From positions 1 through 64,000 of IMG/VR virus record IMGVR_UViG_3300035703_000009: a stretch of 64,000 nt of DNA. The stretch is one strand, 5' to 3'. A program made the position numbers and the translations under genes. The DNA is from a virus. This document shows positions 14,482 to 49,055 of this stretch, piece after piece. Numbering within the stretch: position 1 is the stretch's first letter; the number at the start of each line of letters is the position of its first letter. The notes under the pieces are model-generated. The model did no database searches. It saw nothing but the letters and a program-made list of their open reading frames with translations, and was not told the origin of the DNA.

Positions 14482-14982
14482 TTACATGTTATTGAACAGA
14501 AAGTTTTCGGTGATGATACCAAACTTCATGTTTTGACTCAACGCATACGCTTGAGCGGCCTTAAACTTTGCAGTATTGATGATATACATCTTCGCATGAC
14601 GCGCATAGTTTAATGTCTGTTTTTCAGTGAGCCGAGTAGGAGGCTCAGGTGGAGTCAAGTACTTGTTGGGTTTGATCTCGATAAGCCACTTCGTCACAGA
14701 ATCATCCTGGTTCCTCGTGCACATATAACAGTCGATCCAATATGTACTCTCCTTTTTGAGAATCGGATTAAAGTAAGGGATCCCGTGAGGTTCTGAGGCA
14801 TACTCAAGGACTCGGATATGATTGTCACAGTACTCTAAGAACTTAAATTCCCAGCTAGAACGATAGATGATCTTAGTAAGGTCTCCCTTGTACTTTTCTG
14901 GGTTCTTGGGAGTAAAATAACCCTGACGAACTCTGCCGTTTTGCGGCTTGAGAAAATCATGGATGTCCTTTTTAGCTTTCAT
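14482..14982 (-). CDS. gp4: head completion protein (T4 gp4-like, PD-(D/E)xK fold)
   Basis: GYFTPKNPEKYKGDLTKIIYRSSWEFKF and WLIEIKP motifs match the gp4 family as recalled for T4 and cyanophages. Confidence 0.55.
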   Translation of the reverse strand: MKAKKDIHDFLKPQNGRVRQGYFTPKNPEKYKGDLTKIIYRSSWEFKFLEYCDNHIRVLEYASEPHGIPYFNPILKKESTYWIDCYMCTRNQDDSVTKWLIEIKPNKYLTPPEPPTRLTEKQTLNYARHAKMYIINTAKFKAAQAYALSQNMKFGIITENFLFNNM

Positions 14983-15051: not shown

Positions 15052-15363
15052 TTAACCTACGTTGTCTGCGATGAATTGGTCTGCGTCCTCTGGGCCGATT
15101 TTGCCCTGCTCAACGAGCTTTAGGATTAGTGAGGCAATCGCCAGCTTTTCAGGCACTGCGTCCTCGTCGATCTCTACTTCATTACGTTCGAAAGCGGCGA
15201 CTAGGTCCTCGTGAGCTTCCTTTGCGGCAGCCTCAACTTCTTCTTCAGAACCAACTAGCTCAACCAGTTCGTCCAGCATTTGAGTGTCTAGGTCGAGCGC
15301 ATTTTCCTCATCCGGATTGGCACCAACCACATAATTTTCATCGAGTCTAAGTAACTTAACCAT
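15052..15363 (-). CDS. acidic hypothetical protein (103 aa), late-expressed
   Basis: Asp/Glu-rich. Late-promoter motif lies 9 nt upstream on the minus strand. Confidence 0.5.
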   Translation of the reverse strand: MVKLLRLDENYVVGANPDEENALDLDTQMLDELVELVGSEEEVEAAAKEAHEDLVAAFERNEVEIDEDAVPEKLAIASLILKLVEQGKIGPEDADQFIADNVG

Positions 15364-15395: not shown

Positions 15396-16565
15396 TTACG
15401 CTAAAATGAGATCAAATGCCGAGTCTGAAAAGTATTGAGCGAGCATGGAATTAAAGCTCACAAAGGTTAAAGAAGAATCTCGAATCGAGAGGAAGAGGTA
15501 AAGGTCATTGATGTCTTTCACATCAAGCAAGAGTCGAGCCGATTGGGGATATTTCTTCTTTAGGTCGCTTATCAGCTTGGTCCACAAGAAGACTTGATAT
15601 CCCTGCTTCAGAAGCTCAATCGATTGCTGCTTACCGGCCTTGTCGTTGTCGAAGAGAATACGAGAGTTCTTTTTGGTGACCAAGTTACCGAGTAAGGCCT
15701 TGCTCTTTGTCACGCCGGTGGTGGCGATCGAGTTGTCAAGGAACATCGAATCGATCTGGCCCTCAGTAATAATTATGGGACGCGAGAAGTCAACGTTCAG
15801 CACGTTGAAGTAGTTATTTAACGAGTCGATTTCTTGAATCAGGCTGTCCTCCAGGTCCCTCACGAGGCCGTTCTTTTTGAGTTCAGAATAGTTCTTGATG
15901 TTGTACTTTGGTCCGGGCATGGAATCATCGAGCTTACGTAGGGCAAAGCCCAGCATTCGGCCCGACTTGAGGTCTAGGTTGAATAAGTACACCTTGTCCT
16001 GTCGAGAGTCATAATAACAACTCGACTCAAACACAGGTAGACTGTCAATCTTACGCTTTTTGACGAATCGGCCGACTGGGCTCTCAGGATCGGCCTCACT
16101 GCAAGGTAACAGAGAAAACCTCTCGACTAGGTCATCAAACATTAGCAGTTTCTGACCGATCTCACGATTGATGAGAAGCTCTATTAAAAAGCCTCTCTTC
16201 TTTAGCGTGGTCTCAGGCTTGAACTCTACTCGCTTCTTCTCTAACCCAGGTAGGGTCAAGTTATACTTGGTTGAAAAGTGGGAGATGAACTTTGCAAGCG
16301 GCACCCACACCATGCAACCGTCGTTGTAACACTTATAGGTATGGGTTTTGAGGTAGAGGTTACCTCGTTTCTTGTGTGAATCGGATGCGGAGTCGCCACA
16401 GTAAGGGCAGGCAATGTTTATCTTGTCTCCGTCTGACTCATATATCTCTTGCTTAGTCAACTCGTTTGGAAACCTTCGCTTCAGTACTGCCTTACAGAAC
16501 TGTTGCAGAGAGTAGTCGGTCTTCAGGTCCAGTTGGTTATTCATCGTCAGTGTCATCTTCTCCAT
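15396..16565 (-). CDS. gp61: DNA primase (T4 gp61 / DnaG-like: zinc-binding domain + TOPRIM)
   Basis: CPYCGDSASDSHKKRGNLYL...KCYNDGC zinc finger. ITEGQIDSMFL and LFDNDKAGK match TOPRIM E and DxD motifs. Confidence 0.6.
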   Translation of the reverse strand: MEKMTLTMNNQLDLKTDYSLQQFCKAVLKRRFPNELTKQEIYESDGDKINIACPYCGDSASDSHKKRGNLYLKTHTYKCYNDGCMVWVPLAKFISHFSTKYNLTLPGLEKKRVEFKPETTLKKRGFLIELLINREIGQKLLMFDDLVERFSLLPCSEADPESPVGRFVKKRKIDSLPVFESSCYYDSRQDKVYLFNLDLKSGRMLGFALRKLDDSMPGPKYNIKNYSELKKNGLVRDLEDSLIQEIDSLNNYFNVLNVDFSRPIIITEGQIDSMFLDNSIATTGVTKSKALLGNLVTKKNSRILFDNDKAGKQQSIELLKQGYQVFLWTKLISDLKKKYPQSARLLLDVKDINDLYLFLSIRDSSLTFVSFNSMLAQYFSDSAFDLILA

Positions 16566-17973
16566 TTTCAGCCTCGACTAGTGCGGCTTGTTTCTTCTTA
16601 GTGAGTCGTTTAATGTATTTGTCCAGCTCAAACTTCGGCACGATCACCGAGTTTAGGCCGTACTTTGTGATGGTCGCAAGGTACTCTGGAAAGTCATCCT
16701 CTGAGACTTGAGTTTCAGGATTACCGATTATCTTCCAGAACTTTTGTGGAGTCTCAATGTATTCTAGAGAGTCTTGGTTGACCACATAAAGCGGATAGAT
16801 CTGATCATCCGTGAGATCTTTTTTAGACTTAACAGTCACAACTTCGACTGCTCTTTTTAGATGCGTGTCGATTGAGCTCATCTTCATCGCGACGAGGAGT
16901 CGATTGATGGGTTCGACGATTAAGGTAAAGAATTGTTGGTCACGATCCATAGGCGGAGCGAGCTCAGTAGGATAATTTTCAGGAGCATAGGCAAATACAT
17001 CAAAGTTGTGCTCGTTTGGAGCGCAATAGTAGAACTTGATCTTGTCCTTTTCGCGAATGAGCGAGTACTTTTGGTTGAGTCCGCTCTTAAGCAGAAGATA
17101 GTTATAGTAAGCCGATGCTCGAGGATAGATTGAGATACCCTTCTTAAGGTTTAGGGTCGTAATGTCCTCGACATACTTGTTATAGACTCGCACGTTAAAG
17201 TTAAAGGCTAATTCAGTAGGGTGGAGTTCCATGAACTCTTCCTTAAGAGCTTGTAGCTTGGGAATGAGGTCACGCTCAATATTCAGCTTCTTACCGATCT
17301 CGAGGATGTATTCATCTAGCTTGATCAGGTTCTTACGAGCCCAGTCAGGATAGGAACCTTTGATCGGTTCTAAGCCCTTGATGACTAGGTAACGTTTTTC
17401 TTTAGGCATCAGTGCCAAGTTAGGATTCGGATCGTAAGCTACCTTGATCGCATAGTTCTTTTTCTTGAGCCAGATGCCATACTCAGACAGGTTCTCAAGC
17501 TTGAACTTGAGACGGTTCTTCGTGTTGAAGATCTTTCCGTACTTTTCAAAGCACTGGTCAAAGTATTTCGATAGTCTGTGATGGTCGATGGCGACACAAA
17601 TCGCTAGGGCTTCTTCACGAGTGAATGAAGCGCCTTCTATCGAATCGATAGCTGATTCAAACTGCACGTAAATGGAGTCAGTATCAGTGTAGATTGCAGC
17701 TTCACGCTCGATCTTATTGATCTTGTATCCGTCGATTTTCAATATCTGGTGAAGCTCAGTATCAAGGTGCCACTTTTCTTGAAAGTAGTAGTTCACTGCC
17801 TTGATGGAAAACTTGATCAAGTCTTGGCCCTGTAAAGTTATAGATTGGGCGATGTCTGGGTTGTAAAAATAGAACCACTTGTTACCAAAGGCTCCATAGA
17901 TTGAGTTAATTAAGATCTTGACTGCGTTTTGCTTAAGGTCTAACTTTTTGATCTGCTTTGTTATGTCTTCCAT
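16537..17973 (-). CDS. gp43: family-B DNA polymerase, C-terminal fragment (T4 gp43-like, from motif B onward)
   Basis: KILINSIYGAFGN (motif B, KxxxNSxYG) near the N-terminus and YTDTDSIYV (motif C). No motif A or exonuclease domain. No upstream ORF continues the frame. Confidence 0.8.
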   Translation of the reverse strand: MEDITKQIKKLDLKQNAVKILINSIYGAFGNKWFYFYNPDIAQSITLQGQDLIKFSIKAVNYYFQEKWHLDTELHQILKIDGYKINKIEREAAIYTDTDSIYVQFESAIDSIEGASFTREEALAICVAIDHHRLSKYFDQCFEKYGKIFNTKNRLKFKLENLSEYGIWLKKKNYAIKVAYDPNPNLALMPKEKRYLVIKGLEPIKGSYPDWARKNLIKLDEYILEIGKKLNIERDLIPKLQALKEEFMELHPTELAFNFNVRVYNKYVEDITTLNLKKGISIYPRASAYYNYLLLKSGLNQKYSLIREKDKIKFYYCAPNEHNFDVFAYAPENYPTELAPPMDRDQQFFTLIVEPINRLLVAMKMSSIDTHLKRAVEVVTVKSKKDLTDDQIYPLYVVNQDSLEYIETPQKFWKIIGNPETQVSEDDFPEYLATITKYGLNSVIVPKFELDKYIKRLTKKKQAALVEAENGEDDTDDE

Positions 17974-18109
17974 ACATGGGTATTGTACTTGCTGTTTCCA
18001 TGTAAGTTTATGAAAGCGCTAAGTAAAAAAATTTTTAATTGTTTTGAGCAAGTTCGGCCCATCTGAATAAGATTACTAAATTATAGTGGTGAATTAAAAT
18101 TGACCTTCA

Positions 18110-18125
18110 ATAAATAATAAAAAGC
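18110..18125 (+). promoter_or_regulatory. T4-late-like promoter motif AATAAATAATAAAAAG
   Basis: Exact 14-mer, 8 nt upstream of the ATG at 18134. Confidence 0.55.
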
Positions 18126-18133
18126 CACTCGGC

Positions 18134-18754
18134 ATGGTCGAAGAAGAACTGGAAAGTATTTCAGAGATATGTGACAGCTTACCTTTTATGCAGTCTTTTC
18201 CATTTAGAGACTATGCAATAACTTTGCAAGACACACCTGATCAGTCCACCCAAGACTTAGGCATTGATCCAATACTCATAAAAACATTCGGCCACCTCGA
18301 ACTCAGCAAGAGGGTACACTTTAGCTATGTAGAAGGCGACTCGACCATCATGGTCAGCTTTTACCTAGACGACCTAAAGTTCATCGATGTAAACCAAAAG
18401 AGGATCACCAAGCTGGACTCGGTTCGTGCAGAACTTGAACATGGGCTCGCTTCAAATGACGTTGATACTAAGATCAAGATGATTAAGAGGGGCAAGAGCT
18501 TCGTAAAGAAGTTTAAGTCTTCGATCCTAGACTCACCGTCTTTTGAGAGAATACTGATGGACCTTTGCGAGATAAAGGAGGCCCACCTGGCGACTAACGT
18601 GATGTTAGACTTGCACAAGTTGAATCCTAATGACTCACTTAAACATGGAGACTTTTCAAAAAGAGATCGTGAGACCATCGCAGCATATCTCAATTTTCAA
18701 CTGCACTATGCTAAGATTATCTTAGGAATCGTAATTGCAGCTAAAATATACTAA
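18134..18754 (+). CDS. hypothetical protein (206 aa), late-expressed
   Basis: ORF preceded by the late-promoter motif. Confidence 0.5.
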   Translation: MVEEELESISEICDSLPFMQSFPFRDYAITLQDTPDQSTQDLGIDPILIKTFGHLELSKRVHFSYVEGDSTIMVSFYLDDLKFIDVNQKRITKLDSVRAELEHGLASNDVDTKIKMIKRGKSFVKKFKSSILDSPSFERILMDLCEIKEAHLATNVMLDLHKLNPNDSLKHGDFSKRDRETIAAYLNFQLHYAKIILGIVIAAKIY

Positions 18755-24385: not shown

Positions 24386-26296
24386 ATGGCAGGAATAAAC
24401 AACTTACGAGAAATACGCGACAAGCGCGGGGATGACTTTTTAAATGGCATGATGAATAATTACGTCATCATCAATGAGAAGGTCGATGGCACATTCTTTG
24501 GAGTAAAAAAGACTAAAGGAGACCTATTTAAGTACTTCAAGAAATCGGGAGAGATCAGCTATGTCGATCGAGTGCTGATGAAGTACTACAACCACGTGAT
24601 CGCATATTTTGAGTCGATTCCTCTCGAGAAGAGGCAACGTATTCCAACAAATTTCTTTTTTGGATTCGAGTACTTGACCAAACGTGACGCAGCGGCAAGC
24701 CGATACTCAAGGATGCCAAAGAATGGCTTGGTTCTTTCCTACATCCATAAGTTAGATGATGCTGGAAACGTCATTGCTACAGTTCAAACAAAAGAACATC
24801 TTGATAGATGGGCGGACTATCTAGGAGTAGAGAGACCGCCGATAATCTTTGAAGGCAAGCTCGACGACGAACAAAGAGCCGAGATACTTGAGTTCGTCTA
24901 TGCACCAAACGATAAGTTATACGAAAAATTCAAGACCAAGTCCTTTACCAAGTACATCATCTCGGTTCTAAACAAGGATTATGAGTCGGCCTTCTTAAAG
25001 AACTCTAAGGAAGCTGGAATCGAAGGAATCATTTTTAGGTTCTATGATCAGAACTCTGAAAACCCAGAAGCAAACGTCTTCCTAGCAAAGTTGATAGATC
25101 CGCTATTTCAAGCAAAGGTAAAAGAAGGCGAGCCTGCTCGTAAGAATTCCTCGCAAGACTATATCTGGCTGATCGTCATCGACCTAATGAACCACTTTGA
25201 GATGTATGACCTTTCCGCATTAAAGGAAATGGCAAGCACACCAGGATCCTTTGAAGAAAAGTACGTGCAAATCATCAATTCCATATTTAAAGACTTTATT
25301 AAACAATACGCTGGCAAGTATGCAGGTCTGCATCTAGAGGTTCCAGAATACTTAAATCGACCTGAGTTCAACCTTGATTTTAGCCTAATCCAGGATCCAG
25401 AAGTAAAGAAGTTGGTCGAATCCAGCGAGACCTATGCTGAGATCTATAAGATCTTGCTCAACTTTTTCAGAAAGGCTCGTAAGAAATCGACTTCGGGTTT
25501 CTTCACCAACGAGTTACTGACTCAACTCAACCTCATCGTCGCAAAGATTCGTAACGTGATCATGGGAGACGAGGTGTATGAGGGACTCTTCCCAAGCTTT
25601 AGCGAGTTTGTGGGATCAGCAAACGATGAGTACATGCTGAGCGAGAAAGAAGTCGCTGAGCGCAATAGCAAAAAAGTCGAGGCTAATGAGGTCAATGTTC
25701 TAATTGGAAGCTTTCAGCCAGTGACGATGGGTCACATCAAAGCGGCAAAGAAGCTAAAGGAAAAGAACGGGTTACCGTGCGTCTTTGTTGCGATAAAGCC
25801 TCAATCGCCCACCGCAAAGTCACCTTTTTCTCCACGCTTAACTAAAGCACTATTAGACAAGGTGCAACAGGAGTTTAACGACCTGATAGTCGACGTCAAG
25901 ATAGTCGACTCTGGCCAGATTGAGGATGTAGTAGGCACATTGACTCCAAACTATGAACCTGCTCTTTGGGGAACAACTGAGCGTCGTCTTAAGGACTTTG
26001 CTCTGCAATTAGATTACATCAAAAAAAGAAACATTCCAATAAGGCTCTCTTCGAACCTAAAGTTGACTGAATTACCAGTCTACGTTAGATCAGAAGAAGT
26101 TATTGCTGCCATAAAGAGCTCAGACTTTGCTGAATTCAAAAAGCTAGTGCCAATATCTGTCGCATCAGAGTTCTTTAACTTACAAAAAGAGCTCGGATCG
26201 AAGATTGATGAAGCGACTAATTCAATGCAGAAGATATTTGAATCCGCAGAGATCTCGATTGAGATCGAGGATCCAAAGCTAAAGGAATCGGACTAA
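24386..26296 (+). CDS. RNA ligase (Rnl2-like nucleotidyltransferase) fused to a C-terminal HxGH nucleotidyltransferase-like (NMNAT/cytidylyltransferase-fold) domain
   Basis: N-terminal EKVDGTFFG (motif I KxDG), EGIIFRF (motif IV) and FLAKLIDP (motif V). The C-terminal 200 aa carries VLIGSFQPVTMGHIKAAKKL (a GxFxPxHxGH-like motif) and an SxxxIR-like segment. Confidence 0.55.
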   Translation: MAGINNLREIRDKRGDDFLNGMMNNYVIINEKVDGTFFGVKKTKGDLFKYFKKSGEISYVDRVLMKYYNHVIAYFESIPLEKRQRIPTNFFFGFEYLTKRDAAASRYSRMPKNGLVLSYIHKLDDAGNVIATVQTKEHLDRWADYLGVERPPIIFEGKLDDEQRAEILEFVYAPNDKLYEKFKTKSFTKYIISVLNKDYESAFLKNSKEAGIEGIIFRFYDQNSENPEANVFLAKLIDPLFQAKVKEGEPARKNSSQDYIWLIVIDLMNHFEMYDLSALKEMASTPGSFEEKYVQIINSIFKDFIKQYAGKYAGLHLEVPEYLNRPEFNLDFSLIQDPEVKKLVESSETYAEIYKILLNFFRKARKKSTSGFFTNELLTQLNLIVAKIRNVIMGDEVYEGLFPSFSEFVGSANDEYMLSEKEVAERNSKKVEANEVNVLIGSFQPVTMGHIKAAKKLKEKNGLPCVFVAIKPQSPTAKSPFSPRLTKALLDKVQQEFNDLIVDVKIVDSGQIEDVVGTLTPNYEPALWGTTERRLKDFALQLDYIKKRNIPIRLSSNLKLTELPVYVRSEEVIAAIKSSDFAEFKKLVPISVASEFFNLQKELGSKIDEATNSMQKIFESAEISIEIEDPKLKESD

Positions 26297-26360: not shown

Positions 26361-27932
26361 ATGAAGTATACAGAACTCGAAGAAGCTGACATAGATTACA
26401 TTTCTGAAATCTATTTCAACAAGGAAATTTCATGGGATCAGCGACTTCGCATGCTCTCTGAACGCTATAAAAGATCTGAGCGCACGATTCAACACTGGAT
26501 CTCAAAGCTAGGATTTAGCACCAAACAACAAGAAGAATCTCCGCAGCTGATCGCTGCCAAGTCCCGAGAGCTAGATCGAAGCAAATCGAAGTTCATCATC
26601 ACCTGGGCACAAAACAATACTGACGTTCACGAAAGGTTTATCACCAACCTAGAAGCATATGCTGCTGAGCTGGATGCCAGCATTCACGTGATTGCAGGTA
26701 GATACAAGAACCCAACATCTGTGTTTACCGATCGCAAGTATGACGTATGGTCAGACCGAATCGAAAGGTACTTGGACGCGAATCGTCATGATGTGCATAA
26801 GTACGTCTCAATCATGTCTGACGTGAAGATACAGCCGACTGCGGTCGATCCGATGACGGGCTTACAGGGCATGAGCGGTATCAATTCCTGCGTTTTTGGT
26901 TCGCCTAAGGTGCAGATGGAAATGATCCCAGTTTTGACTGGCAACAGACCAAAGATGATGGTAACTACTGGCGCATGCACAGTGAAGAACTACACCGACT
27001 CAAAGGCCGGTAAAAAGGGCGAGTTTCATCACACTCTAGGATTTGCCATCATTGAGATCAAGGACGATGACACTTTTTTCATAAGACAAGTAACAGCTTC
27101 AGATAACGGAGACTTTAACGACCTATACTTTAACGTAAAGTACTCTGAAGGTGAGGGTAAGAGCTCAATTAGTCGTAACTCATCGATCGCTGCACTAGTG
27201 TTAGGCGATCTACACTATGGTCAACATGATCCTCAAGTATTAGACCAATCATTTAACCTGATGGCCAAGTTAAGTCCCGATCACGTCATCATCCACGACG
27301 CGTTTGACGGAACCTCAATCAACCATCATGAGACCAAGGACCCATTTGTCCAATACCAAAAGGAAATGGCTGGCACAAACTCGCTAAAGAAGGAGATAGA
27401 TGCCTTGTTGCTTGGCCTTGAAGACTTTCAAGACTATAACGTGGTCATCGTTCGCAGCAACCACGACGACTTCATCGATCGTTGGTTAAAGGACACCGAT
27501 TGGAGAAAGACTGTCACCCCAAAGAACTCTCTCGAATACATGCAATACTCGGCAGCCATACTAAGCGGCCAAGCTCCAAACGGAGTCATTCCATACCTGA
27601 TCAACCAAAAGTTTCCTCACTTTAAGACACTAGGCAGAAACGATAGCTACCTGGTGAAGGGCTGGGAACTAGGTCAGCATGGAGATATCGGTTCGAGCGG
27701 AACCAGGGGATCGCTATTACAGTTACGCAAGCTCAACACCAAGATAGTGGTAGGCCACTATCATGCTCCAGGCAGAAAAGACGGTGCTTTGTCAGTTGGA
27801 ACCTCGACCAAGCTTCGCCTAAACTATAACCTAGGCGCTAGCAGTTGGTTACAGTCTCACGTAATCATCCATCAAGACGGAAAAGCACAACACATTAACT
27901 TTATTAACGGCGAATTCACTACTCTAGAATAA
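26361..27932 (+). CDS. calcineurin-like metallophosphoesterase with N-terminal HTH-like region
   Basis: LVLGDLHYGQHD (GDxHG), VVIVRSNHDD (GNHD/E) and later GQHGD / VVGHYH motifs. Confidence 0.55.
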   Translation: MKYTELEEADIDYISEIYFNKEISWDQRLRMLSERYKRSERTIQHWISKLGFSTKQQEESPQLIAAKSRELDRSKSKFIITWAQNNTDVHERFITNLEAYAAELDASIHVIAGRYKNPTSVFTDRKYDVWSDRIERYLDANRHDVHKYVSIMSDVKIQPTAVDPMTGLQGMSGINSCVFGSPKVQMEMIPVLTGNRPKMMVTTGACTVKNYTDSKAGKKGEFHHTLGFAIIEIKDDDTFFIRQVTASDNGDFNDLYFNVKYSEGEGKSSISRNSSIAALVLGDLHYGQHDPQVLDQSFNLMAKLSPDHVIIHDAFDGTSINHHETKDPFVQYQKEMAGTNSLKKEIDALLLGLEDFQDYNVVIVRSNHDDFIDRWLKDTDWRKTVTPKNSLEYMQYSAAILSGQAPNGVIPYLINQKFPHFKTLGRNDSYLVKGWELGQHGDIGSSGTRGSLLQLRKLNTKIVVGHYHAPGRKDGALSVGTSTKLRLNYNLGASSWLQSHVIIHQDGKAQHINFINGEFTTLE

Positions 27933-28158: not shown

Positions 28159-29853
28159 ATGCGACACATCACTAGAATATTTGAATCCTTTGACCTTTCA
28201 GCAATCAAGTCACAGCTTGAAGGCAAGGTCGGCGGCAACATACAGGATGATAAGACCAAGATCACTTCCTTTGAAGGACTGGAAAAGGTGTTTGACCTCA
28301 TTCCTTTAGAGCTGACTGAGTCTGCAAATTCACCGGAGATGAATGACCTAGTCGGGTTGTTGATCGATAAGGATCGAATTGACTTTCTAAAGGCATATGT
28401 CGAGAAAGAGGCCAAGGTTGTCAATCAAATAGCCAATGACCTAAAGCCGATCTTCACACCAAAGGACGAGCTCAACTTTGCTCGTTCGATCCAAGCATAC
28501 ACTACAGTCTCACAAAGACTTCTTAAGATCCATAACCTAATGAGTCCGGCTCCAGCAAAGGCTAACGAGTCGAGGCTGGTTGAGGAGTTAAATCCCGACG
28601 AAGACACAAAGAAAAAGATGGAGGAGATTGCGAGAGTGAGCAAGGAGAGCCTAGCGAACAGCTACGCCAAGATCTTTAACATTCAGACAAAAAACATTGA
28701 GTCGATACCAGAGACGGGTGAAGGCGCTGACAAGCTAGAGAGCCTCATTGAGTTATTAAGTTCGCTTGGAGTGCTATCCCTAGTTAAGGAAGAAGCGGCA
28801 AAGAAAAAGAGTCGCATGCCCAAAGAAGAGTCCCTCTCCACCAAAAAGAAGAAAAGGATTAGCGTACGACTACTTAGAGCGATAGCCATCTCGCAGTTGC
28901 CGGCAATCTCAAACCAACAGATAGACAAACCCGGTGACTATTTTAGACTATTCAAGTCATTAGAGTCCCAAAACCCAGCATGGATGGACCTTTCAATCGA
29001 AAAATACGTCTTTGGTGGAAACGCCAAGGAGGTATCTGACTTCAACGCTACTGCTCGTGGCACTGAAAGCGCGACCGAAGAGAACCAGATCAACTACTTG
29101 CGAGCGAATCGTTCATGGATCCTAAGCTACATCAAGAGCGACAAGGACGGAACCTTGACCGATAAGGAAGAAAATAATTATGTCTCACAGCTTGAGACCA
29201 CCTGCACTGAAAAGGAAAAGGAGATCAAGAACTATTACTTGTCCCGTGACTTCAACATCAGTAACGTGAGCGGCATACAAATTAAGCCAGAGATTAAGCT
29301 TCCTCTCTACTCAAAAGTAAGGTTAGCTGTGTCTGAAAGCGACAGGCTAAAGGAAAGCCCGCTTAGAAACATCGTAGGAGGAGCTCTGGCAATAGTCGGT
29401 GGACTCTTTTCAAGAATAGAGGACAAAGTTGACTCAGGAGCGCTGGCTGCATCCAAAGCTAGAAACGAAGCCATATTCAAGGGAATTAGTGCAATCGCTA
29501 AAGGAACTGTAACACTAGTCGGTGGCAAACAAGCCGGTCGAGACTATGAAGCTGGCCTAGAGAAGATAAGTTCTAAGTTAAACCCAGAACGCATCACCCT
29601 ATCCCAAGACGAAAGGAAAGGTAGAGTTAAAGAAGATATGATCGCGACGACTGATGCGACAGGATATGCTCCAGTGAATCCAGAAGCACCAGGTCAGTTC
29701 ATGCAGACTCCTAATTCCATGGCAGGTACCATGGACACTTTCTCACTACTTGGTCCAGGTAAAAAGAGCGAGGCTAAGAAAAAGTCAAAGACTGCAGGTT
29801 CAAAGGTGTTAACCTTTGCCGATTTCATCGATAGTAAAAGCAAAGTTGATTAA
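28159..29853 (+). CDS. hypothetical large protein (564 aa), probable virion/structural module
   Basis: Long ORF at the head of the same-strand structural gene block. Lys-rich, no motif. Confidence 0.5.
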   Translation: MRHITRIFESFDLSAIKSQLEGKVGGNIQDDKTKITSFEGLEKVFDLIPLELTESANSPEMNDLVGLLIDKDRIDFLKAYVEKEAKVVNQIANDLKPIFTPKDELNFARSIQAYTTVSQRLLKIHNLMSPAPAKANESRLVEELNPDEDTKKKMEEIARVSKESLANSYAKIFNIQTKNIESIPETGEGADKLESLIELLSSLGVLSLVKEEAAKKKSRMPKEESLSTKKKKRISVRLLRAIAISQLPAISNQQIDKPGDYFRLFKSLESQNPAWMDLSIEKYVFGGNAKEVSDFNATARGTESATEENQINYLRANRSWILSYIKSDKDGTLTDKEENNYVSQLETTCTEKEKEIKNYYLSRDFNISNVSGIQIKPEIKLPLYSKVRLAVSESDRLKESPLRNIVGGALAIVGGLFSRIEDKVDSGALAASKARNEAIFKGISAIAKGTVTLVGGKQAGRDYEAGLEKISSKLNPERITLSQDERKGRVKEDMIATTDATGYAPVNPEAPGQFMQTPNSMAGTMDTFSLLGPGKKSEAKKKSKTAGSKVLTFADFIDSKSKVD

Positions 29854-29874
29854 TTATCACCTGCTTCTTATCTC

Positions 29875-29890
29875 AATAAATAATAAAAAG
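29875..29890 (+). promoter_or_regulatory. T4-late-like promoter motif AATAAATAATAAAAAG
   Basis: Exact 14-mer, 11 nt upstream of the ATG at 29902. Confidence 0.55.
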
Positions 29891-29901
29891 AAGCGCAGCT
29901 C

Positions 29902-31773
29902 ATGAGAAACATAATTAAGATGGGTCAGAACTCAAATCCTACTGGAGGAGAGAATGAGCCAGCATTTGGAAAGTCTCTTGATAGCCTGCTCAATGTTGAT
30001 CAGGACACCTTTAACCACCTGGCATCCACATATGATCCCAACGTCAAGCCAATCGGCGTGACTGATGGACCAGGAGCAGAAGGAATCACGGTCGAGGCAG
30101 CTGACTCTATTTTCAACCCATTCTACCTATTTAGATACGCAAAGTATGGAAATGTTGCAGGTGCATCTAAGGGTTATTCAACTGAGTATCACCGAGATGT
30201 CAATCCAATTTCTCAGAACTCAAACAGTGCTGTGCAGAAGGATACCGTTACCTTAATCAACGAAAACAAGAAGTTCATCAATAACCCGACTGCAAGTCAA
30301 ATCATCGAGTGGGCAGCAAATGATGCCGATCGCAAGACAGCAAACACTTTGGGTCCGACTCCATATCAGTGGAACGACTTTTTATGGTGTAAGTGGTATG
30401 GTCGTATACCAAACAATCGTCTATTGACTCTGCGTAGGTACCCGATTCCGGTAGAAGATAACCTGCTTATCGCGTCTGAAAAGATGCCGCTTGTTCCAAT
30501 CGCTCAAGCTGTGACTTGGTGGGGAGGAGAGACTGAAAACTCGTTAGACAACATACTTGGTCTATCATATGGTTTTAATTGGACGTCAAAGACCGCTGAA
30601 GTCACTGATGCTAACGGTAATGAGATTTCAGTCGACGCGTTAAATGGATCGCTCGGAATAGAAAATAAGACTTTGCGACAGTTCTTAAACGCTGCTCTTG
30701 GAGGAAGTGATAATCCGTACGCTGCGACTGGCTTGGATAAAAAGTTACAAGACTGGGTCAAAGAATCATACACGAAGGGACCGTATTGGAACCGAGTGTT
30801 AGGTCCGATTAACGTGATCAACAAGACTCAAATCAGAGACACTGGCTATACTTTCACTCACCAAATCCAATTAAAGTTTTCCTATGCGTTAAGGTCATTT
30901 AATAACATCAATCCTAAGATCGCGATGTTGGACCTAATTACTAACTTTTTAGCTTTGACTTACAATAAAGCTGAGTTCTGGGGAGGCAGCATACGTTATT
31001 TTAAACAAACAGGCTTGCTCTTACCGGGTTTGCCGCAGGCTGATTTTGAAAAAGGCGACTACATCACTGGAATCAAGGAAACGCTCAAGGCTCTCTTACA
31101 AAGGGCTCAAGAACAAGCAAAAGATGTTTCAACGCTAATCGGAAAGGTGGTTGCCAAAGAAGAGTCTATTGATGCAGCACTGGCTAAGGTTGAGAGCTCA
31201 CAGATAGCTCGAAACATTGCCGGCTCTTGGGTAAAGGACTTGATTCAGGGACCGATTGCGATGCGTGCTATCCTAGACGGCAGGGCCGTTGGTGAATGGC
31301 ACTTAACAGTTGGCAACCCAATCGATCCGATCGCAGTGATTGGGAACTTGTGTCTAAAGAACACTAAAATAAAGTTTTCTGACGCTCTTGGACTAGATGA
31401 CTTTCCTACCGAAGTAAGCTTCACGGTCACGTTAGAGCCAGGCAGAGCCAGAGCAAAGCAAGACATTGAGTCGATGTTTAATGCTGGTGGCGGAGACATG
31501 TCATTCACTCCACTACCTCTTCCTTCTTCTGCATACAACTCATATGGAGAAAGAAACTCAATTGTTGCAAACTCGCTTAGGGCTGGAAACAATGCTGACC
31601 CTAATGCAAAGGATGCATACACTGGATCAAACAAGTCAGTTACATCAAACCAATCTGGAGCAGAAAACATTGCAAACTACTTTAGAACAAACGTCACTAA
31701 GGCATACGGTTCAAAGTTTGCAGCATCGCCTGTGTTAGATGACTACTTTTTACAACTAAAAACTAAGGACTAA
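29902..31773 (+). CDS. putative structural (baseplate/tail) protein (623 aa)
   Basis: Large late-promoter-driven ORF upstream of the baseplate-like genes. Confidence 0.5.
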   Translation: MRNIIKMGQNSNPTGGENEPAFGKSLDSLLNVDQDTFNHLASTYDPNVKPIGVTDGPGAEGITVEAADSIFNPFYLFRYAKYGNVAGASKGYSTEYHRDVNPISQNSNSAVQKDTVTLINENKKFINNPTASQIIEWAANDADRKTANTLGPTPYQWNDFLWCKWYGRIPNNRLLTLRRYPIPVEDNLLIASEKMPLVPIAQAVTWWGGETENSLDNILGLSYGFNWTSKTAEVTDANGNEISVDALNGSLGIENKTLRQFLNAALGGSDNPYAATGLDKKLQDWVKESYTKGPYWNRVLGPINVINKTQIRDTGYTFTHQIQLKFSYALRSFNNINPKIAMLDLITNFLALTYNKAEFWGGSIRYFKQTGLLLPGLPQADFEKGDYITGIKETLKALLQRAQEQAKDVSTLIGKVVAKEESIDAALAKVESSQIARNIAGSWVKDLIQGPIAMRAILDGRAVGEWHLTVGNPIDPIAVIGNLCLKNTKIKFSDALGLDDFPTEVSFTVTLEPGRARAKQDIESMFNAGGGDMSFTPLPLPSSAYNSYGERNSIVANSLRAGNNADPNAKDAYTGSNKSVTSNQSGAENIANYFRTNVTKAYGSKFAASPVLDDYFLQLKTKD

Positions 31774-31774
31774 T

Positions 31775-32362
31775 ATGTTACTAGGCAGAATACTAAGGGC
31801 AAAACGAACTTTCACGACTAAGCTAAACGATGTCATCATTGACTTAATTAGCTCTACGTTCAATTTTGAAGCGGCCAGTGGACCTGCTCAAGGTTACGTT
31901 AGAGTAAAAGAGTTTGAAGTGATGCGTCCAGACCTGATCTCGATTAGGATGTATGCCGATCACCAGTACTATGAGCCATTGTTAAAGTACAATGGAATCT
32001 CCAATCCTTTTTCCCTAGACGTAAACGAAGTGTTACTCGCTCCGCCATTTAAGAACTTAGACGCGATGGTGGTTGCACCAAAGAGTGTTGTCGAAAAAGG
32101 ATTAGAGCTTGCAGCAAACAACGAGTCTAAACTAGTCGTGCCAAAAACAGTTAAAGATAAGAAGAGACTTGATGCTCTCAAAGATAAGGTAAAGGAGATA
32201 GTTCCACCTAATGTTAATACCTCAGGAAACAAAAACGTGAAAGTAAGAGATGGAAAGGTCATATTCGGTGAGGACGTGACCCAAGTGAACAAGGATAACT
32301 GTCCGGTGCCAATATCAAGAGCAAGACTCATTCAACAACTCACAAAAGCTAACCTATTCTAA
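31775..32362 (+). CDS. LysM-like domain protein, possible baseplate wedge (gp53-like)
   Basis: VMRPDLISIRMYADHQYYEPLLKYNGISNPFSLDVNEVLLAP fits the LysM pattern. Confidence 0.35.
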   Translation: MLLGRILRAKRTFTTKLNDVIIDLISSTFNFEAASGPAQGYVRVKEFEVMRPDLISIRMYADHQYYEPLLKYNGISNPFSLDVNEVLLAPPFKNLDAMVVAPKSVVEKGLELAANNESKLVVPKTVKDKKRLDALKDKVKEIVPPNVNTSGNKNVKVRDGKVIFGEDVTQVNKDNCPVPISRARLIQQLTKANLF

Positions 32363-33855
32363 TGTCATTTAACCAGACCATAAAAGGCACGGTGTTGCCA
32401 AAGGTTCCCTTAAAAACTCTGTTTGAGGAGGACACTTCAGTCGATAGCCAGAGCGATGCCTCAAGGAAGGCTCCAAAGTACATGCCGGACTCAGGGCAGC
32501 TGACTGGCGCAAGGGAACCCTATGTCAAAATAGGAGGACAGATCGTCAAAGGGATTGACATGTTGACAATCGATGAGACTGGATTTATCCCTACTGTCTC
32601 AATGACGTTCGTCGATCCATTAGGCGAGTTTGCCGGCGATTACTTTCCAAAGACGAATCTTATCATGAACGTCTACCTAAAATCAGGTAGCGAGAAGTTT
32701 AAGCCGATTCGCTGTGATTTCTTAATCAAGTCAGTAAAATCGATTCCGCCTAAGTTTACAGGTAAAAAGGATGCGATTGCAATGGGCACCACTTACATGG
32801 TAAAAGGAGAGCTCTACATTCCTAACATCTATCGTAGCATCTCAAAGAGTTATGCTAAGTTGAACTCTAAGGACGCCTTAAAAAAGATATGTGATGAGTT
32901 AGGCTTAGGATTTGCAGAAAATGAGAGCAAGCCTGCCGATTCAATGACTTGGATCAATACTAACATGAGTAATCTACAGTTCATCCAAAAGATAGTTGAA
33001 CACTCATATCAGAGCGATGACACTTTTTTCATGGCATTCATCGACAAGTACTATTACTTAAACTTTATTGAAGTCAATGAGCAGTTAAAAGTAGGTGAAG
33101 CACAAAAGACATTCATCACTTCAGGCAATGCGTTATTGCCTAGTTTTAACCAAAGATCAAAGGACGATGCAGGTGCGGCTGCCATTCAAGACGACACTAC
33201 TTACAACTATTTGACTACTGAAGTCGACTATAAGAACTCGATAAACTACATTCACACATTGAACTTGGTCTCGGCACAAGGGGACGTTTTAAAAAACCAG
33301 GGATATAAAAAGGAGATCTACTATTATGATCACCTTAAAAAAGCAGACACGCCGAGGGACAAGTTCATCAACTTCTTCATGGCTCCGCTACGTAGTCAGG
33401 ATCGAGATACCTCGACTTTTCTAATTCCAGAAGAGCAAAGCCTAGCTGAAAACAAGATAAAAAAGTGGATGAACATTGACTACGGTAACACTCACATCCA
33501 TTGGAACGCGGCTAGAGTCATAAATAACCATAACTTGAAGGAGTTGGAGAAAATTAAGCTAAAGGTCGTGCTAAATAACATTAACTTTCAAGCTATTCGA
33601 GGATTCATGATACCTGTGGCGATAACCGTTCAACAGGCTGAAAAGATATTAAAATCAACTGAATCTGGCGATGAGGCTAATCAAAAGGCTAATGTTAGAA
33701 CTAATCTTAATGACCAAGCGATTGACGAACAACTTACGGGTTACTACTACATTAGCGGAGCAAAATATCACTATGACGCATTGCACCCGAATGGCCTCTA
33801 CACTGAGCTTTTCCTCGCACGTAGAGAGTGGAGACCTTCGAAAAAAACTAGTTAA
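32362..33855 (+). CDS. putative baseplate-module protein (497 aa)
   Basis: ATGA-coupled to its neighbours in the structural block. Confidence 0.45.
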   Translation: MSFNQTIKGTVLPKVPLKTLFEEDTSVDSQSDASRKAPKYMPDSGQLTGAREPYVKIGGQIVKGIDMLTIDETGFIPTVSMTFVDPLGEFAGDYFPKTNLIMNVYLKSGSEKFKPIRCDFLIKSVKSIPPKFTGKKDAIAMGTTYMVKGELYIPNIYRSISKSYAKLNSKDALKKICDELGLGFAENESKPADSMTWINTNMSNLQFIQKIVEHSYQSDDTFFMAFIDKYYYLNFIEVNEQLKVGEAQKTFITSGNALLPSFNQRSKDDAGAAAIQDDTTYNYLTTEVDYKNSINYIHTLNLVSAQGDVLKNQGYKKEIYYYDHLKKADTPRDKFINFFMAPLRSQDRDTSTFLIPEEQSLAENKIKKWMNIDYGNTHIHWNAARVINNHNLKELEKIKLKVVLNNINFQAIRGFMIPVAITVQQAEKILKSTESGDEANQKANVRTNLNDQAIDEQLTGYYYISGAKYHYDALHPNGLYTELFLARREWRPSKKTS

Positions 33856-35747: not shown

Positions 35748-36101
35748 ATGGAAAAATTTGAAATTAGACCTTGGGGCTGGTTTGAAGTGTTAACTGAAGA
35801 CGTTAACTATAAAGTTAAAAGATTAGTAGTATGTCCAGGCAAAAGACTCTCATATCAATACCATAATAAAAGAAAAGAACATTGGGTTGTTGTGCAAGGA
35901 GATGGAGTTTTTATCTATGGAAATGATAATTCGACTTTTGAAAAAACTGTGGAAACAGGTAGTTCAATTTTTATTGAAATTGGTGAGTATCATCGTATAC
36001 AAAATACAGGAGAAAGTGATCTGATCATCATTGAAACCCAATTAGGTCAGTGTGATGAAGAAGACATTGTAAGAATAGTTGACGACTTCAATCGAGTCTA
36101 A
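35748..36101 (+). CDS. cupin-domain protein (mannose-6-phosphate isomerase type II C-terminal-like)
   Basis: RPWGWFEVL...KVKRLVVCPGKRLSYQYHNKRKEHWVVVQGDGVF matches the PMI/ManC cupin signature. The start taken is the ATG at 35748, not the upstream in-frame Met of the ORF track. Confidence 0.55.
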   Translation: MEKFEIRPWGWFEVLTEDVNYKVKRLVVCPGKRLSYQYHNKRKEHWVVVQGDGVFIYGNDNSTFEKTVETGSSIFIEIGEYHRIQNTGESDLIIIETQLGQCDEEDIVRIVDDFNRV

Positions 36102-36694
36102 CGATATAGAGTTTCAATGCTCTCATACCTTAAAAAAGAATTAAGGCTTGAATTTGGATTGACTGAAACCATTGAAATCCCTTTACTTTTAAGCAGCTGC
36201 ATATTGAATTTAATCTTTTCAAATCTAGGTAGATACCAATCAGCTCCAACTGAATGGCCGATTTGATTTGAGGAGGAGTTGGATTTTTTCCAAAAATGAC
36301 TGGGGTCTTGCCACTTCAATGAGACTCCAGCAATGTAAAAAATTGAATTTGGAATGTAGTTTGTGTTGAAAAGATCAATTGCGTTTGAAATTGAGTCAGG
36401 AAAGAGTCTCGTATTTTTTCTAGAGTAAACTTTAGTCCATCCTGGTATTTTATTTTTGATGTTCTTTTGTAACCAGTCACTTGAATAAATTGTGGAATTT
36501 CTTTTAAGCTCTTCTAGTTTTTCAGGATAGCGCGAAAGTTCATTTGAAATGATAAGATCAGAAAAAAAGAAATAATTAGGAATAAATTTAAGCCAAATTC
36601 GATTTACACCGAGCGTCACAATGTTTGGATGAATTTTCTCAAAGTCAATTGAATTGATTTGTGGATCGTTACCTAAAACTAAAACTTTAGCCAT
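36098..36694 (-). CDS. Cst-II/GT42-like or Maf(DUF115)-like nonulosonate glycosyltransferase
   Basis: MAKVLVLGNDPQINSIDFEKIHPNIVTLGVNRIWL parallels Cst-II MKKVIIAGNGPSLKEIDYSRLPNDFDVFRCNQFYF. The IGHS motif aligns with the Cst-II catalytic His (YIGHS). Confidence 0.45.
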   Translation of the reverse strand: MAKVLVLGNDPQINSIDFEKIHPNIVTLGVNRIWLKFIPNYFFFSDLIISNELSRYPEKLEELKRNSTIYSSDWLQKNIKNKIPGWTKVYSRKNTRLFPDSISNAIDLFNTNYIPNSIFYIAGVSLKWQDPSHFWKKSNSSSNQIGHSVGADWYLPRFEKIKFNMQLLKSKGISMVSVNPNSSLNSFLRYESIETLYR

Positions 36695-36986
36695 TCAACC
36701 AGTCTCTAGAGTTCATATTTTTATCGTCAATGAAGACATCATATGCTGGCTTACCAAACTTTAGTTCGTGATACTGGACACCCCAAGTCCTAAGTTGTTG
36801 CTCAGTTAATTGTCTCCAATCGATTCCACTTTTAGTGCCCCTGGCAGTCCAGAAAACGATCTGGTGACCTTCCTCGTATAAAGCATTGACTTTTGCGATT
36901 GCCTGAGGAATCGGAGTCGCAGTTTCATACTTTAGGGACTCAGCTAGAGTGCAGATGGTGTCGTCAATGTCGATGTAGTAGGTCAT
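36687..36986 (-). CDS. small HAD-superfamily phosphatase
   Basis: YIDIDDTICTL (DxDxT), FWTARGT and KPAYDVFIDDK motifs. 99 aa. Confidence 0.5.
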   Translation of the reverse strand: MTYYIDIDDTICTLAESLKYETATPIPQAIAKVNALYEEGHQIVFWTARGTKSGIDWRQLTEQQLRTWGVQYHELKFGKPAYDVFIDDKNMNSRDWLNG

Positions 36987-37266
36987 CTATCTTAATGTTG
37001 TTTTCTTCTTTGAACTTTTCCCAAGCAGCCGCATCCATCATGTCTGGAAAGCGTGAGCCTCCATTGCAAGACTCCTTTACATAGATCTTGCCGGGAAAGG
37101 AACATCCGCAATTGATGCAAAATTCATATACGGCACAGTCATTCTTACAGACCTGTGAACGATAAAAGACTTGCTCTTTTTCGTGCTTAGGCAAGAGGTG
37201 GAACTGGTCGCCCAGCATCTTTAGGTTGCCCTCAATGAACTGGTAGATTTTCTTAGGGGTTATCAT
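36964..37266 (-). CDS. Cys-rich hypothetical protein (100 aa)
   Basis: CKNDCAVYEFCINCGCSFPGK cluster. Overlaps its neighbours by a few nt. Confidence 0.35.
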   Translation of the reverse strand: MITPKKIYQFIEGNLKMLGDQFHLLPKHEKEQVFYRSQVCKNDCAVYEFCINCGCSFPGKIYVKESCNGGSRFPDMMDAAAWEKFKEENNIKIDDLLHRH

Positions 37267-38153
37267 TTTCCTCTTAATGTTTTTCTTTTGTCAAGTTCAG
37301 ACTTAAGAACTTCTCTGGGGCCGTAACCTCCTCTAGCGCTTTCGATATCACGAATGCTCTTTATCAGCTTAATGAGTCCTTGGGGCTCGACTGAAGCTAT
37401 TTGATCACTGCCCCAAAGAGAACGATCGACTGTGATGTGACGTTCGATCCAGGTGGCTCCAAGCAAAGTTGCAGCAATGGTCGTAGTAAGTCCAAACTCA
37501 TGACCGGAATACCCCACCGCAAATGACTTTGGAAAGTCTTTACCCTTACTGATGTGGCTCAAGTAGGTGATATAGTCGAGATTAAGTTCATGATTTGGAG
37601 CAGGATAAGTAGAGTTAGTATGAAAAACTACATCAGGTCTACATTCAACTACTGCTAAGTCTATTTCCTCTTGTGTGCTCATACCGGTGGAGATAAGGAG
37701 AAAGTCTGAACAGTCTCGTGCGTATTGAATTAGCTCGAGGTCATGGATTAGGGCCGATGGTATTTTCATCATCACTCCCCACTTGCCATTAGGTAAGAGG
37801 GTCTCAAATTTTCGCGCAAAGTCAACTGACTTTTTGTCCCACACTGAGGTAAACCAACGCATTTTTCGAGCTTCGCAATAGTCATCTATTTCCTTGTACT
37901 GTTCATGGGAAAGCTCAATGTCGAGTTTATATTGAAAGTAAGTGGTCGCCTCTTTGCGCCAGGGCACCCTTTTTGTTTTTGACCTTTCCGCTTGAGGAAC
38001 ACACGATTCAGGATCACGTTTTTGAAACTTTACATAATCAACTCCGGAAACTGCCGCAATATCAATAAGTTTTTTTACATTATTGATGAATTCCTTCGTA
38101 GAGGAACCATATGCATAATTTATGCCTATTTCTGCAATTATCGTGGTTTTCAT
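37263..38153 (-). CDS. neuB: NeuB-family nonulosonic acid (sialic/legionaminic/pseudaminic acid) synthase
   Basis: IIAEIGINYAYGS, VKFQ, ISTGMST, VGYSGHEFG and IERHITVD match NeuB motifs IIAEIGCNHNG / ISTGMAT / VGYSDHSLG / IEKHFTLD. The start is set at the internal Met, which gives an ATGA overlap with the upstream gene. The ORF-track 5' extension reaches 38225. Confidence 0.75.
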   Translation of the reverse strand: MKTTIIAEIGINYAYGSSTKEFINNVKKLIDIAAVSGVDYVKFQKRDPESCVPQAERSKTKRVPWRKEATTYFQYKLDIELSHEQYKEIDDYCEARKMRWFTSVWDKKSVDFARKFETLLPNGKWGVMMKIPSALIHDLELIQYARDCSDFLLISTGMSTQEEIDLAVVECRPDVVFHTNSTYPAPNHELNLDYITYLSHISKGKDFPKSFAVGYSGHEFGLTTTIAATLLGATWIERHITVDRSLWGSDQIASVEPQGLIKLIKSIRDIESARGGYGPREVLKSELDKRKTLRGK

Positions 38154-39184: not shown

Positions 39185-39921
39185 AATTTTCTTTTATTTT
39201 TTTCAAAAATTTTGTCTCCTGGAAAGGAGGCTGTATTTATGAATCCTTTTTGAGTTAAGAAAGCCATCATTTCATCTAGTGAATTTCCTGCCTGAACCGT
39301 ATGCTTTTGGTCCCACTCAATTATAAGAGTAAGGTTATTTGCTTTTTCTAAAAAATCGCTCATACCTTTTAATACATTCATCTCAAACCCTTGAACATCA
39401 ATTTTTATTAACCCAATATCGTAACTTGGATTTTCAAGTAAAAACGTGTCTAATTTTTTACAGACAACTTGCTCAGTAATGTAATTTTTAGAATTCATAT
39501 TAGAGATCGCAACCTCTTTGTTAAAGGAAGCATTGTCTGAGCAATAAGGAATGAATATTTCTTGAGTAGTATCAGAATCAAATAGAGCAAAGTTTAGAAT
39601 TTGCATGTTTTTACAAGAGTTTGCACTTTTACTCTGCTCTAACAATGAAACATTCATACTAAGCGGCTCAACTGATAGTACGGAATAACCATATTTTTCA
39701 GCAGGTATTGAAAACATTCCGCAATTTGCACCAACATCTAACACAGACCTAGATTTATCCATTTTTCTTACAAGATTAAGCATCATAGTGTAATCCTTCA
39801 TCTCATTGAGGTTTGTTCTAGCTTTTATTTTATAGTCAGTGACAAAATAGTCAAAATTAAAGATTACGTATTCAAAATTAGCGTTTTTAAAAATAAATCT
39901 TTCAGGTTTAGTAGAAATCAT
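39181..39921 (-). CDS. FkbM-family methyltransferase
   Basis: VLDVGANCGMFSIPAEK...VLSVEP matches the FkbM DVGANxG...EP signature. Confidence 0.5.
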   Translation of the reverse strand: MISTKPERFIFKNANFEYVIFNFDYFVTDYKIKARTNLNEMKDYTMMLNLVRKMDKSRSVLDVGANCGMFSIPAEKYGYSVLSVEPLSMNVSLLEQSKSANSCKNMQILNFALFDSDTTQEIFIPYCSDNASFNKEVAISNMNSKNYITEQVVCKKLDTFLLENPSYDIGLIKIDVQGFEMNVLKGMSDFLEKANNLTLIIEWDQKHTVQAGNSLDEMMAFLTQKGFINTASFPGDKIFEKNKRKL

Positions 39922-39932
39922 GAGCGTTTAGA

Positions 39933-41530: not shown

Positions 41531-41546
41531 ATTTAAAAATTGTTTT

Positions 41547-44366: not shown

Positions 44367-44376
44367 CGTAGTTCAT

Positions 44377-49052: not shown

Positions 49053-49055
49053 TAT

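Follow-up and report, generated by a model that had tools for sequence, protein, structure and literature searches.

A T4-like phage family-B DNA polymerase that appears to be divided at the fingertip into two unlinked, intein-free genes

The window analyzed here is a 64,000-nucleotide stretch of viral DNA (positions 1 to 64,000 of IMG/VR record IMGVR_UViG_3300035703_000009) from a T4-like phage that, judging by sample names, appears to be of freshwater origin. Its minus strand carries a 478-amino-acid open reading frame (ORF) with an ATG start (16537..17973) that encodes only the C-terminal part of a family-B DNA polymerase (PolB). We propose, with a probability of roughly 85%, that this ORF is the C-terminal subunit of a two-subunit replicative PolB whose genes are unlinked, and whose chains associate non-covalently after separate translation. 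A matching N-terminal fragment, ending where the window ORF begins, is present tens of kilobases upstream in relatives of this phage.

The identity of the C-fragment is clear from both its domain content and its conserved residues. In a Pfam scan, residues 7-360 match positions 146-450 of the 453-position DNA_pol_B profile (PF00136, E=4.6e-15), and the ORF therefore corresponds to the C-terminal part of the family only. It runs from the second fingers helix, which carries motif B, through palm motif C, the KKxY motif and the thumb to a C-terminal extension that is specific to the clade; motif B (KxxxNSxYG), motif C (YxDTDS), KKxY and the thumb fold are features of family-B enzymes of the T4/RB69 gp43 type. 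Motif B (KILINSIYG, residues 19-27, 17893..17919) aligns to RB69 residues 559-568 and includes the equivalents of RB69 K560, N564 and Y567, while motif C (YTDTDS, residues 95-100, 17674..17691) contains the catalytic aspartates. Across 35 aligned homologs, down to 57% identity, K19, N23, S24, Y26 and G27 of motif B, Y95, D97, T98, D99 and S100 of motif C, and K172 and Y174 of KKxY are all invariant. Exo I-III and motif A, which share a polypeptide with motifs B and C in a single-chain polymerase, do not occur in the 478-residue ORF, as an earlier note on this DNA had observed. The ORF starts 18 residues before motif B, and this is its maximal 5' extension, since ORFs were called from the first start codon after a stop. 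An AlphaFold2 (AF2) model of the C-fragment alone has a mean predicted local distance difference test (pLDDT) score of 80 and is confident except at residues 1-48, the fingers helix without its partner; the best Foldseek matches to this model are RB69 and T4 gp43. The C-terminal extension of ~100 amino acids (residues ~372-478, 16540..16860 on the minus strand) is absent from T4 and cyanophage polymerases. It is conserved and, in the predicted model, confidently folded as a small alpha/beta domain that includes a long helix and an acidic tail; it matched no Pfam family and gave no significant hit in the fold search.

Homologs of the C-fragment are numerous and of remarkably uniform size. A large protein database contained 466 at E<=1e-10, and the best 120 (57-100% identity) are nearly all 466-492 amino acids long; NCBI lists one of the homologs as 'DNA polymerase subunit B [uncultured Caudovirales phage]'. 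The ratio of nonsynonymous to synonymous substitution rates (dN/dS) among relatives is 0.012-0.026 for the C-fragment, a value that is only approximate because dS is near saturation, and 0.02-0.05 for the N-fragment described below. As far as sequence comparison can tell, the C-fragment is under strong purifying selection, and is neither an artefact nor a remnant.

The window extends 46 kb upstream and 16.5 kb downstream of PolB-C, and no N-terminal half was found in it. Searches by tblastn with the full-length polymerases of Flavobacterium phage MaF61 and Synechococcus phage S-SCSM2R matched only 16858-17964. Pfam and PHROGs scans of the large window ORFs identified portal, gp13-like, gp21 protease, gp23, topoisomerase II, UvsW, PhoH, primase and sugar-metabolism genes, with no exonuclease or motif-A protein and no polymerase besides the C-fragment. 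A Logan flank of the same phage continues ~8 kb past the right end of the window, and encodes a helicase, Fapy glycosylase, dCMP deaminase and ThyA, with no polymerase piece; on the left side, this Logan contig stops close to where the window begins. Likewise, none of 77 related IMG/VR loci has an N-half within +-10 kb of its C-fragment. The earlier note had described a short divergent region upstream of PolB-C followed by plus-strand genes, and this description is accurate: the region spans 160 bp (17974..18133) and precedes a plus-strand ORF at 18134-18754, and tblastn detected no polymerase-like coding in either, in any frame. A frameshift or an immediately adjacent N-half, either of which had been named as grounds for discarding the split, was looked for in independent assemblies, by all-frame tblastn and in the 8-kb flank, and neither was found. 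The identical 478-residue gene with the same neighbors is present in independent Logan, JGI and ENA assemblies. A near-identity DNA search with the window region matched nothing among GenBank phages. The earlier note had also proposed looking for remnants of inteins, homing endonucleases or mobile elements near 17974-18133. No trace of an intein, homing endonuclease or intron was found in the window, either by tblastn with the endonuclease, IntN and IntC sequences of relatives or, for introns and other RNA families, by Rfam; Intein_splicing is absent from the window ORF, and there are no tRNAs. Some relatives do carry such elements at or near this site.

Because none of the 77 loci had a nearby N-half, the partner was sought by walking outward in relatives from ThyA, which served as an anchor from the right flank of the window phage. 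In about 20 relatives an N-terminal polymerase fragment was found 8.5-16 kb upstream of ThyA. These fragments are ~460-480 amino acids long (typically ~473) and end right after the first fingers helix, for example in ...LYDERIKTQGEIKQLKNSK followed by a stop codon. Exo I (DIE), Exo II (GWNxxxFDxxY), Exo III (YNxxD), motif A (DFSSMYPN) and the first fingers helix (LYxxR) are invariant among them. The large protein database contained 345 homologs of the N-fragment, of which the best 120 are mostly ~472-480 amino acids long and all match PF03104 and part of PF00136. An earlier IMG/VR scan with an N-half alignment built from cyanophage, pelagiphage and Flavobacterium phage sequences was swamped by cyanophage polymerases and recovered no target contigs, but further scans with the N-fragment itself yielded ten IMG/VR contigs that carry both halves. 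In 10/10 both halves share a strand and N lies upstream of C, at distances of 52.1, 52.7, 53.6, 49.1, 43.2, 43.2, 43.3, 48.0, 37.8 and 47.2 kb. The expectation that the N-fragment would be encoded elsewhere, and not adjacent, is thus borne out by its absence from the window and flank and by its position 38-54 kb upstream on these contigs. The N-gene lies in a conserved cluster of replication and recombination genes with the order gp32-like, RNase H, Cpn10, a ~1000-residue reverse-strand gene, dUTPase-like, a 78-residue ORF, N-fragment, small ORFs, UvsX, gp41, gp47 and gp46, and structural, tail and sugar-metabolism genes occupy the interval between the halves. ThyA of the window phage lies at window-equivalent 70.9-71.8 kb, and the relative with the closest ThyA has its N-fragment 16.1 kb past that gene; the N-fragment of the window phage is therefore predicted at ~88 kb, roughly 70 kb upstream of the C-gene. 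A small ORF just downstream of the N-fragment was considered as a third subunit or fingertip remnant and rejected, since the sub-clades do not share it and Pfam gave no match.

Alignments of both halves to contiguous enzymes agree on where the gene was broken. Residue 18 of the C-fragment aligns to RB69 gp43 residue 559, next to K560 of motif B, in a profile alignment that spans RB69 559-791; residue 5 aligns to Pfu residue 472, which puts Met1 at about Pfu residue 468. From the other side, residue 466 of a 473-residue N-fragment aligns to Deep Vent residue 468. The junction thus consists of an N-fragment tail ...LYDERIKTQGEIKQLKNSK, then stop, and a C-fragment start MEDKEKHIKKLDLKQNAIKILINS, and the distance from the conserved arginine of helix N to motif B is ~31 residues across the halves, versus 35 in the contiguous cyanophage S-SCSM2R enzyme. 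Taken together, they put the break at the fingertip, where helix N gives way to helix P, and the halves abut with nothing missing or extra. The earlier note had placed the break within the palm, which these alignments do not support; since the fingers are inserted in the palm, a fingertip break nonetheless leaves the two palm segments on different chains. Motif B sits on the C-fragment, so this is not the Methanothermobacter type of break, which falls in the palm downstream of motif B. Neither are there intein halves at the break, whether an IntN on the N-piece or an IntC ending in HN followed by S, T or C on the C-piece, nor any extra residues at either end.

We hypothesize that a single ancestral PolB gene was broken at the fingers-tip loop. 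The fingertip is a known hotspot for insertions, and the break may have originated with a mobile element that hit this site, followed by genomic uncoupling of the halves. The resulting N-subunit (~473 amino acids) would contribute the N-terminal domain, the 3'-5' exonuclease with Exo I-III, palm motif A and fingers helix N, and the C-subunit encoded in the window would contribute fingers helix P with motif B, motif C, KKxY, the thumb and the extra C-terminal domain. Gene order, promoter-like blocks and a terminator-like hairpin place PolB-N and PolB-C in separate transcription contexts: the N-gene would be expressed within the gp32/RNase H/UvsX/gp41/gp47/46 cluster tens of kilobases upstream on the same strand, and the C-gene at the head of a small primase operon. 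By analogy with known split polymerases, the separately translated chains would then assemble non-covalently, the fingers helices packing as an antiparallel pair. As the motif-A and motif-C segments would complete one palm while the fingers helices pair, the active site would be built from both chains.

Several observations weigh against this proposal or some part of it. The N-fragment of the window genome itself was not observed, and is seen in relatives only. None of five candidate N-fragments (P0139, P0165, P0147, P0155 and P0153) comes from the window's Logan sample, SRR11566518, and the one sample in which N-fragment P0165 is found together with the exact C-fragment is ENA ERZ21966605. 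The argument for a mobile-element origin is circumstantial, resembling elements being found in some relatives (as homing endonuclease-like ORFs and inteins) with no trace in the window. Physical association and polymerase activity of the two chains are predictions from precedent, to which the conserved catalytic residues and the low dN/dS lend indirect support.

Other explanations fit these data less well. The ORF lacks motif A and the exonuclease and therefore cannot be catalytic alone; this, together with its tight coupling to the primase gene, might suggest a decaying polymerase remnant, or a non-catalytic recruit such as a primase accessory factor, in a phage replicated by some other polymerase. 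It is difficult to reconcile such a role with the invariance of motifs B, C and KKxY and the low dN/dS, with a length that is the same in hundreds of clusters, or with an N-fragment that carries all the catalytic and exonuclease residues on the same contigs in relatives; nor did the window scans turn up a second polymerase. We consider a remnant or recruit very unlikely. Slightly less likely again is that the halves are rejoined covalently, by a split intein (protein trans-splicing) or by RNA trans-splicing, so that the functional enzyme is one chain. Split inteins are documented in T4-like PolB (PMC11923092), and both split and contiguous inteins occur at motif C in related sequences (L037, L050, L059 and Prevotella phage Lak-A2). 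At the fingertip, though, the N-fragment ends 7-13 residues after helix N without the ~100 residues of an IntN, and the C-fragment begins with its Met 18 residues before motif B, without a ~40-residue IntC or an HN/S junction. The fragments together cover the whole fingers hairpin, the window is free of inteins and of Rfam introns, and both ORFs have conserved start and stop codons of their own.

An error of assembly, sequencing or gene calling (a frameshift, a chimeric contig or an alternative genetic code) deserves consideration for a metagenome-derived window, all the more as some relatives, the Lak phages, recode stop codons. It is barely credible here, given an identical structure and neighbors in the Logan, JGI and ENA assemblies, the same local synteny at the 77 IMG/VR loci, and 160 bp of upstream sequence and a divergent gene devoid of polymerase-like coding in any frame. 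Moreover, the N-fragment is consistently 38-54 kb away in relatives, and versions of the split in huge phages persist under genetic codes 11, 15 and 4.

Several known systems resemble the two-subunit polymerase proposed here. Among T4-related phages, gp43 is split into 43A and 43B in Aeromonas phages 25, 31, 44RR and 65 and in Acinetobacter phage 133 (Petrov et al. 2006, 2010, cited in PMC3061061, PMC2988022), and phage 25 gp43A and gp43B co-purify and are active (PMC2988022). As in the window clade, the enzyme is a T4-like PolB, the break is at the fingertip, each of the two ORFs has its own start and stop, and no intein lies at the break. They differ in that only 2 bp to 3 kb separates their adjacent genes, an interval that in some cases contains a seg-type homing endonuclease gene (HEG) or an untranslated spacer, whereas in the window phage there is no N-half for >54 kb upstream (37.8-53.6 kb in relatives) and the C-gene has its own promoter region and forms an operon with primase. 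The PolB of Methanothermobacter (Methanobacterium) thermautotrophicus is likewise intein-free; its two genes are unlinked, at a distance of 85 kb, and their products form an active assembly (Kelman et al. 1999, cited in PMC3061061, PMC2677866). That enzyme is archaeal, with a palm break ~83 residues C-terminal to the fingertip (PMC3061061) and motif B on its large N-terminal fragment. An engineered Pfu polymerase split between residues 467 and 468, essentially at the position of the C-fragment Met1 (~Pfu 468), reconstitutes wild-type activity and kinetics, and folding of its C-fragment depends on the N-fragment (PMC3061061); this split is artificial, bicistronic and archaeal. Finally, the pieces of Nanoarchaeum equitans PolB and of Aeromonas phage Aes123 PolB, which carries the PolB1 intein, are ligated by protein trans-splicing (PMC2677866, PMC11923092). 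These too are family-B polymerases in pieces, with unlinked genes in N. equitans, but the window clade lacks intein halves at the fingertip break. In the literature searched, which is incomplete, we came across no phage described as having a fingertip split that is both unlinked and intein-free. What appears to be new is this combination, as a fingertip split and an unlinked, intein-free split are each known separately. The split is not mechanistically surprising given these precedents, but it is widespread.

We searched 1.84 billion representatives exhaustively, and classified the best 150 of the 50%-identity representatives. Clean stand-alone C-fragments account for 82 of the 150 (29-57% identity, median 399 amino acids), and begin at a median of ~20 residues before the position of the window ORF's Met1; only 15 of the 150 looked full-length. 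The earlier note had called a non-adjacent split unusual, which holds relative to the literature searched but not in metagenomes, where the arrangement is common, nor among Lak and huge phages. Three deposited genomes without annotation illustrate the latter. Unlinked halves with the same break are found in LR756504 (N at 255.9 kb on the plus strand, C at 538.0 kb on the minus strand) and LR745206 (N at 232.8 kb, plus; C at 130.6 kb, minus), and in Prevotella phage Lak-A2 (MK250019) N is at 123.1 kb on the minus strand (L384:2462-3985) and C at 345.6 kb on the plus strand (L385:2387-3205), ~221 kb apart. The LR756504 and Lak-A2 ORFs remain separate under all three genetic codes given above. 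As in the window clade, a stand-alone N-fragment ends after helix N, a stand-alone C-fragment starts before motif B, and the two are unlinked; these genomes differ in having halves 100-280 kb apart on opposite strands, ~26-33% identity, and longer fingertip helices. No published description of a fingertip split in Lak or huge phages was found in the searchable literature. In Lak-A2, moreover, motif C is followed by an IntN-like segment with which the C-fragment ORF terminates.

Given this breadth, it is tempting to speculate that the fingertip break is old and stably inherited, and defines a very large uncultured T4-like assemblage, including Lak and huge phages, in which PolB is an obligate heterodimer whose genes are free to move, while in the window's clade the C-subunit became permanently co-transcribed and translationally coupled with primase and gained a new C-terminal domain. 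We regard this wider scenario as doubtful, though possible. If true, it would mean a rewired replisome, in which the 'business end' of the polymerase is made stoichiometrically with primase, and the exonuclease-bearing N-subunit is made with recombination and helicase genes.

Gene 43, encoding PolB, is a standard marker for T4-like phages. A PolB that exists as two ~475-residue proteins, tens to hundreds of kilobases apart, throughout a large environmental group affects both annotation and marker-gene phylogenetics. Pipelines consequently label the two distant pieces inconsistently ('elongation subunit', 'subunit B', 'hypothetical'), and genomes with a split PolB may be scored as having no intact polymerase. 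In the gene-breaking model of Dassa et al. (2009), the last step is genomic uncoupling of the parts; the window clade looks like the end state of this model, reached without a split intein, while relatives show earlier or parallel stages in the form of a boundary HEG-like ORF, a contiguous intein, and an intein that is fractured and accompanied by a free-standing endonuclease. The fingertip site has been used repeatedly in nature, and the engineered Pfu split at this site altered nucleotide-analogue acceptance. By analogy, split-PolB proteins could provide a ready library of self-assembling, two-piece PolBs for engineering.

The inteins of relatives are at a different position from the break discussed above. 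In PolB, Intein_splicing (Pfam) was found only at motif C, in some relatives, where the insertion falls between DTD and S (L037, L050 and L059); the window has none. These motif-C inteins are a separate, additional event in some relatives, distinct from the fingertip break. In L037:9977-11917 (IMGVR_UViG_3300042197_004886) a contiguous mini-intein of ~165 residues interrupts the motif (YTDTD, then SVAADTII...ILVHN, then SIYVQ), producing a 647-residue C-fragment, and the same arrangement is found in P0092, P0093, P0096 and P0099. In L050:8009-11137 and L059:8026-11140, as well as P0080 and P0100-P0112, a fractured intein divides the C-fragment once more, at motif C, in the order C1+IntN (231 amino acids), a free-standing 412-residue endonuclease-like ORF with a weak REase_MTES_1575/DUF559 match, and IntC+C2 (427 amino acids). 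The fractured intein of L050 and L059 is cysteine-less, with Ser1 and Ser+1, and the polymerase there is three genes. At the fingertip boundary itself, L011:8338-9930 (minus strand), L007:1841-3433 and L069 have a 531-residue opposite-strand ORF exactly between the divergent 206-residue ORF (orf206) and the C-fragment start; its weak Pfam matches (DUF7487, Mom and a DUF559/MTES_1575 endonuclease) suggest it may be a homing-endonuclease-like element. On Logan contigs with N-fragment P0147 (L377:4792-6402, L378 and L379), the UvsX/RecA gene adjoining the N-fragment is also in two ORFs, one of 299 amino acids with RecA_N and weak Intein_splicing/Hint matches, followed by one of 232 amino acids with a faint Intein_splicing match, possibly another split intein in the same replication cluster.

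The neighborhood of PolB-C is stable. Wherever a locus extends far enough to judge, the 77 IMG/VR loci share the order UvsW, PhoH, divergent orf206, PolB-C, primase, a 103-residue ORF (orf103), TnsA-like endonuclease and portal, constant down to 52% identity. PolB-C is directly followed by primase in related loci whose sequence extends that far downstream. The primase gene (Toprim, with a Toprim_2 match; 15396..16565, minus strand) overlaps the 3' end of PolB-C by 29 nt, as had been noted before, and the overlap recurs in independent gene calls; given this overlap with the PolB-C stop, primase is probably translationally coupled. The third gene encodes an acidic protein of 103 amino acids (15052-15363, minus strand), conserved in most relatives, and is followed by an intrinsic-terminator-like hairpin (15032-15007, minus strand) with a 10-bp stem and a T-run that probably marks the end of the operon. 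At the other end, the AT-rich divergent region (17974..18133) contains blocks conserved in an alignment with 13 relatives, namely an invariant TTATTTAT, a -10-like box TTTAGTAT, and AAGTAnAA before the ATG, and probably holds the promoter of the PolB-C/primase operon. The divergent ORF beyond it (18134..18754, plus strand, 206 amino acids) is a conserved neighbor in related loci extending upstream of the C-fragment, and has no Pfam or PHROG match. The TnsA-like endonuclease (PF08722, E=4.8e-16; 14482-14982, minus strand) lies between the primase operon and portal. That it might be a mobile-element remnant linked to the split was considered and discarded: nearly all related loci reaching that far have it, and it is therefore a conserved gene of the clade rather than a recent mobile element.

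Elsewhere in the window, a low-GC island of ~15 kb (36000-51800, minus strand; 31-36% versus ~44% elsewhere) contains about 16 co-directional genes with roles in glycosyltransfer and in the metabolism of sugars and nonulosonic acids, including NeuB (37263-38225), an epimerase/dehydratase (38150-39184), GT11 (40691-41530), UDP-glucose dehydrogenase (45104-46204) and a GT29 sialyltransferase-like gene (49056-50513), all on the minus strand. The island may have been acquired horizontally. It sits between the C-gene and the predicted position of the N-fragment, and the C-to-ThyA distance there is ~10 kb longer than in a relative. On the plus strand, a 636-residue ORF (24386-26296) has weak RNA-ligase and cytidylyltransferase-like matches, and a 523-residue ORF (26361-27932) matches PHROG 1745 ('DNA transfer protein', E=5e-146) and has a metallophosphoesterase region. 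Several neighboring ORFs of 500-620 amino acids at 28159-33855 have no family match. Just after the major capsid gene, a 590-residue plus-strand ORF (57746-59518) with many UspA1-type adhesin repeats and an ice-binding-like beta-roll match may encode a decoration or fibre protein.

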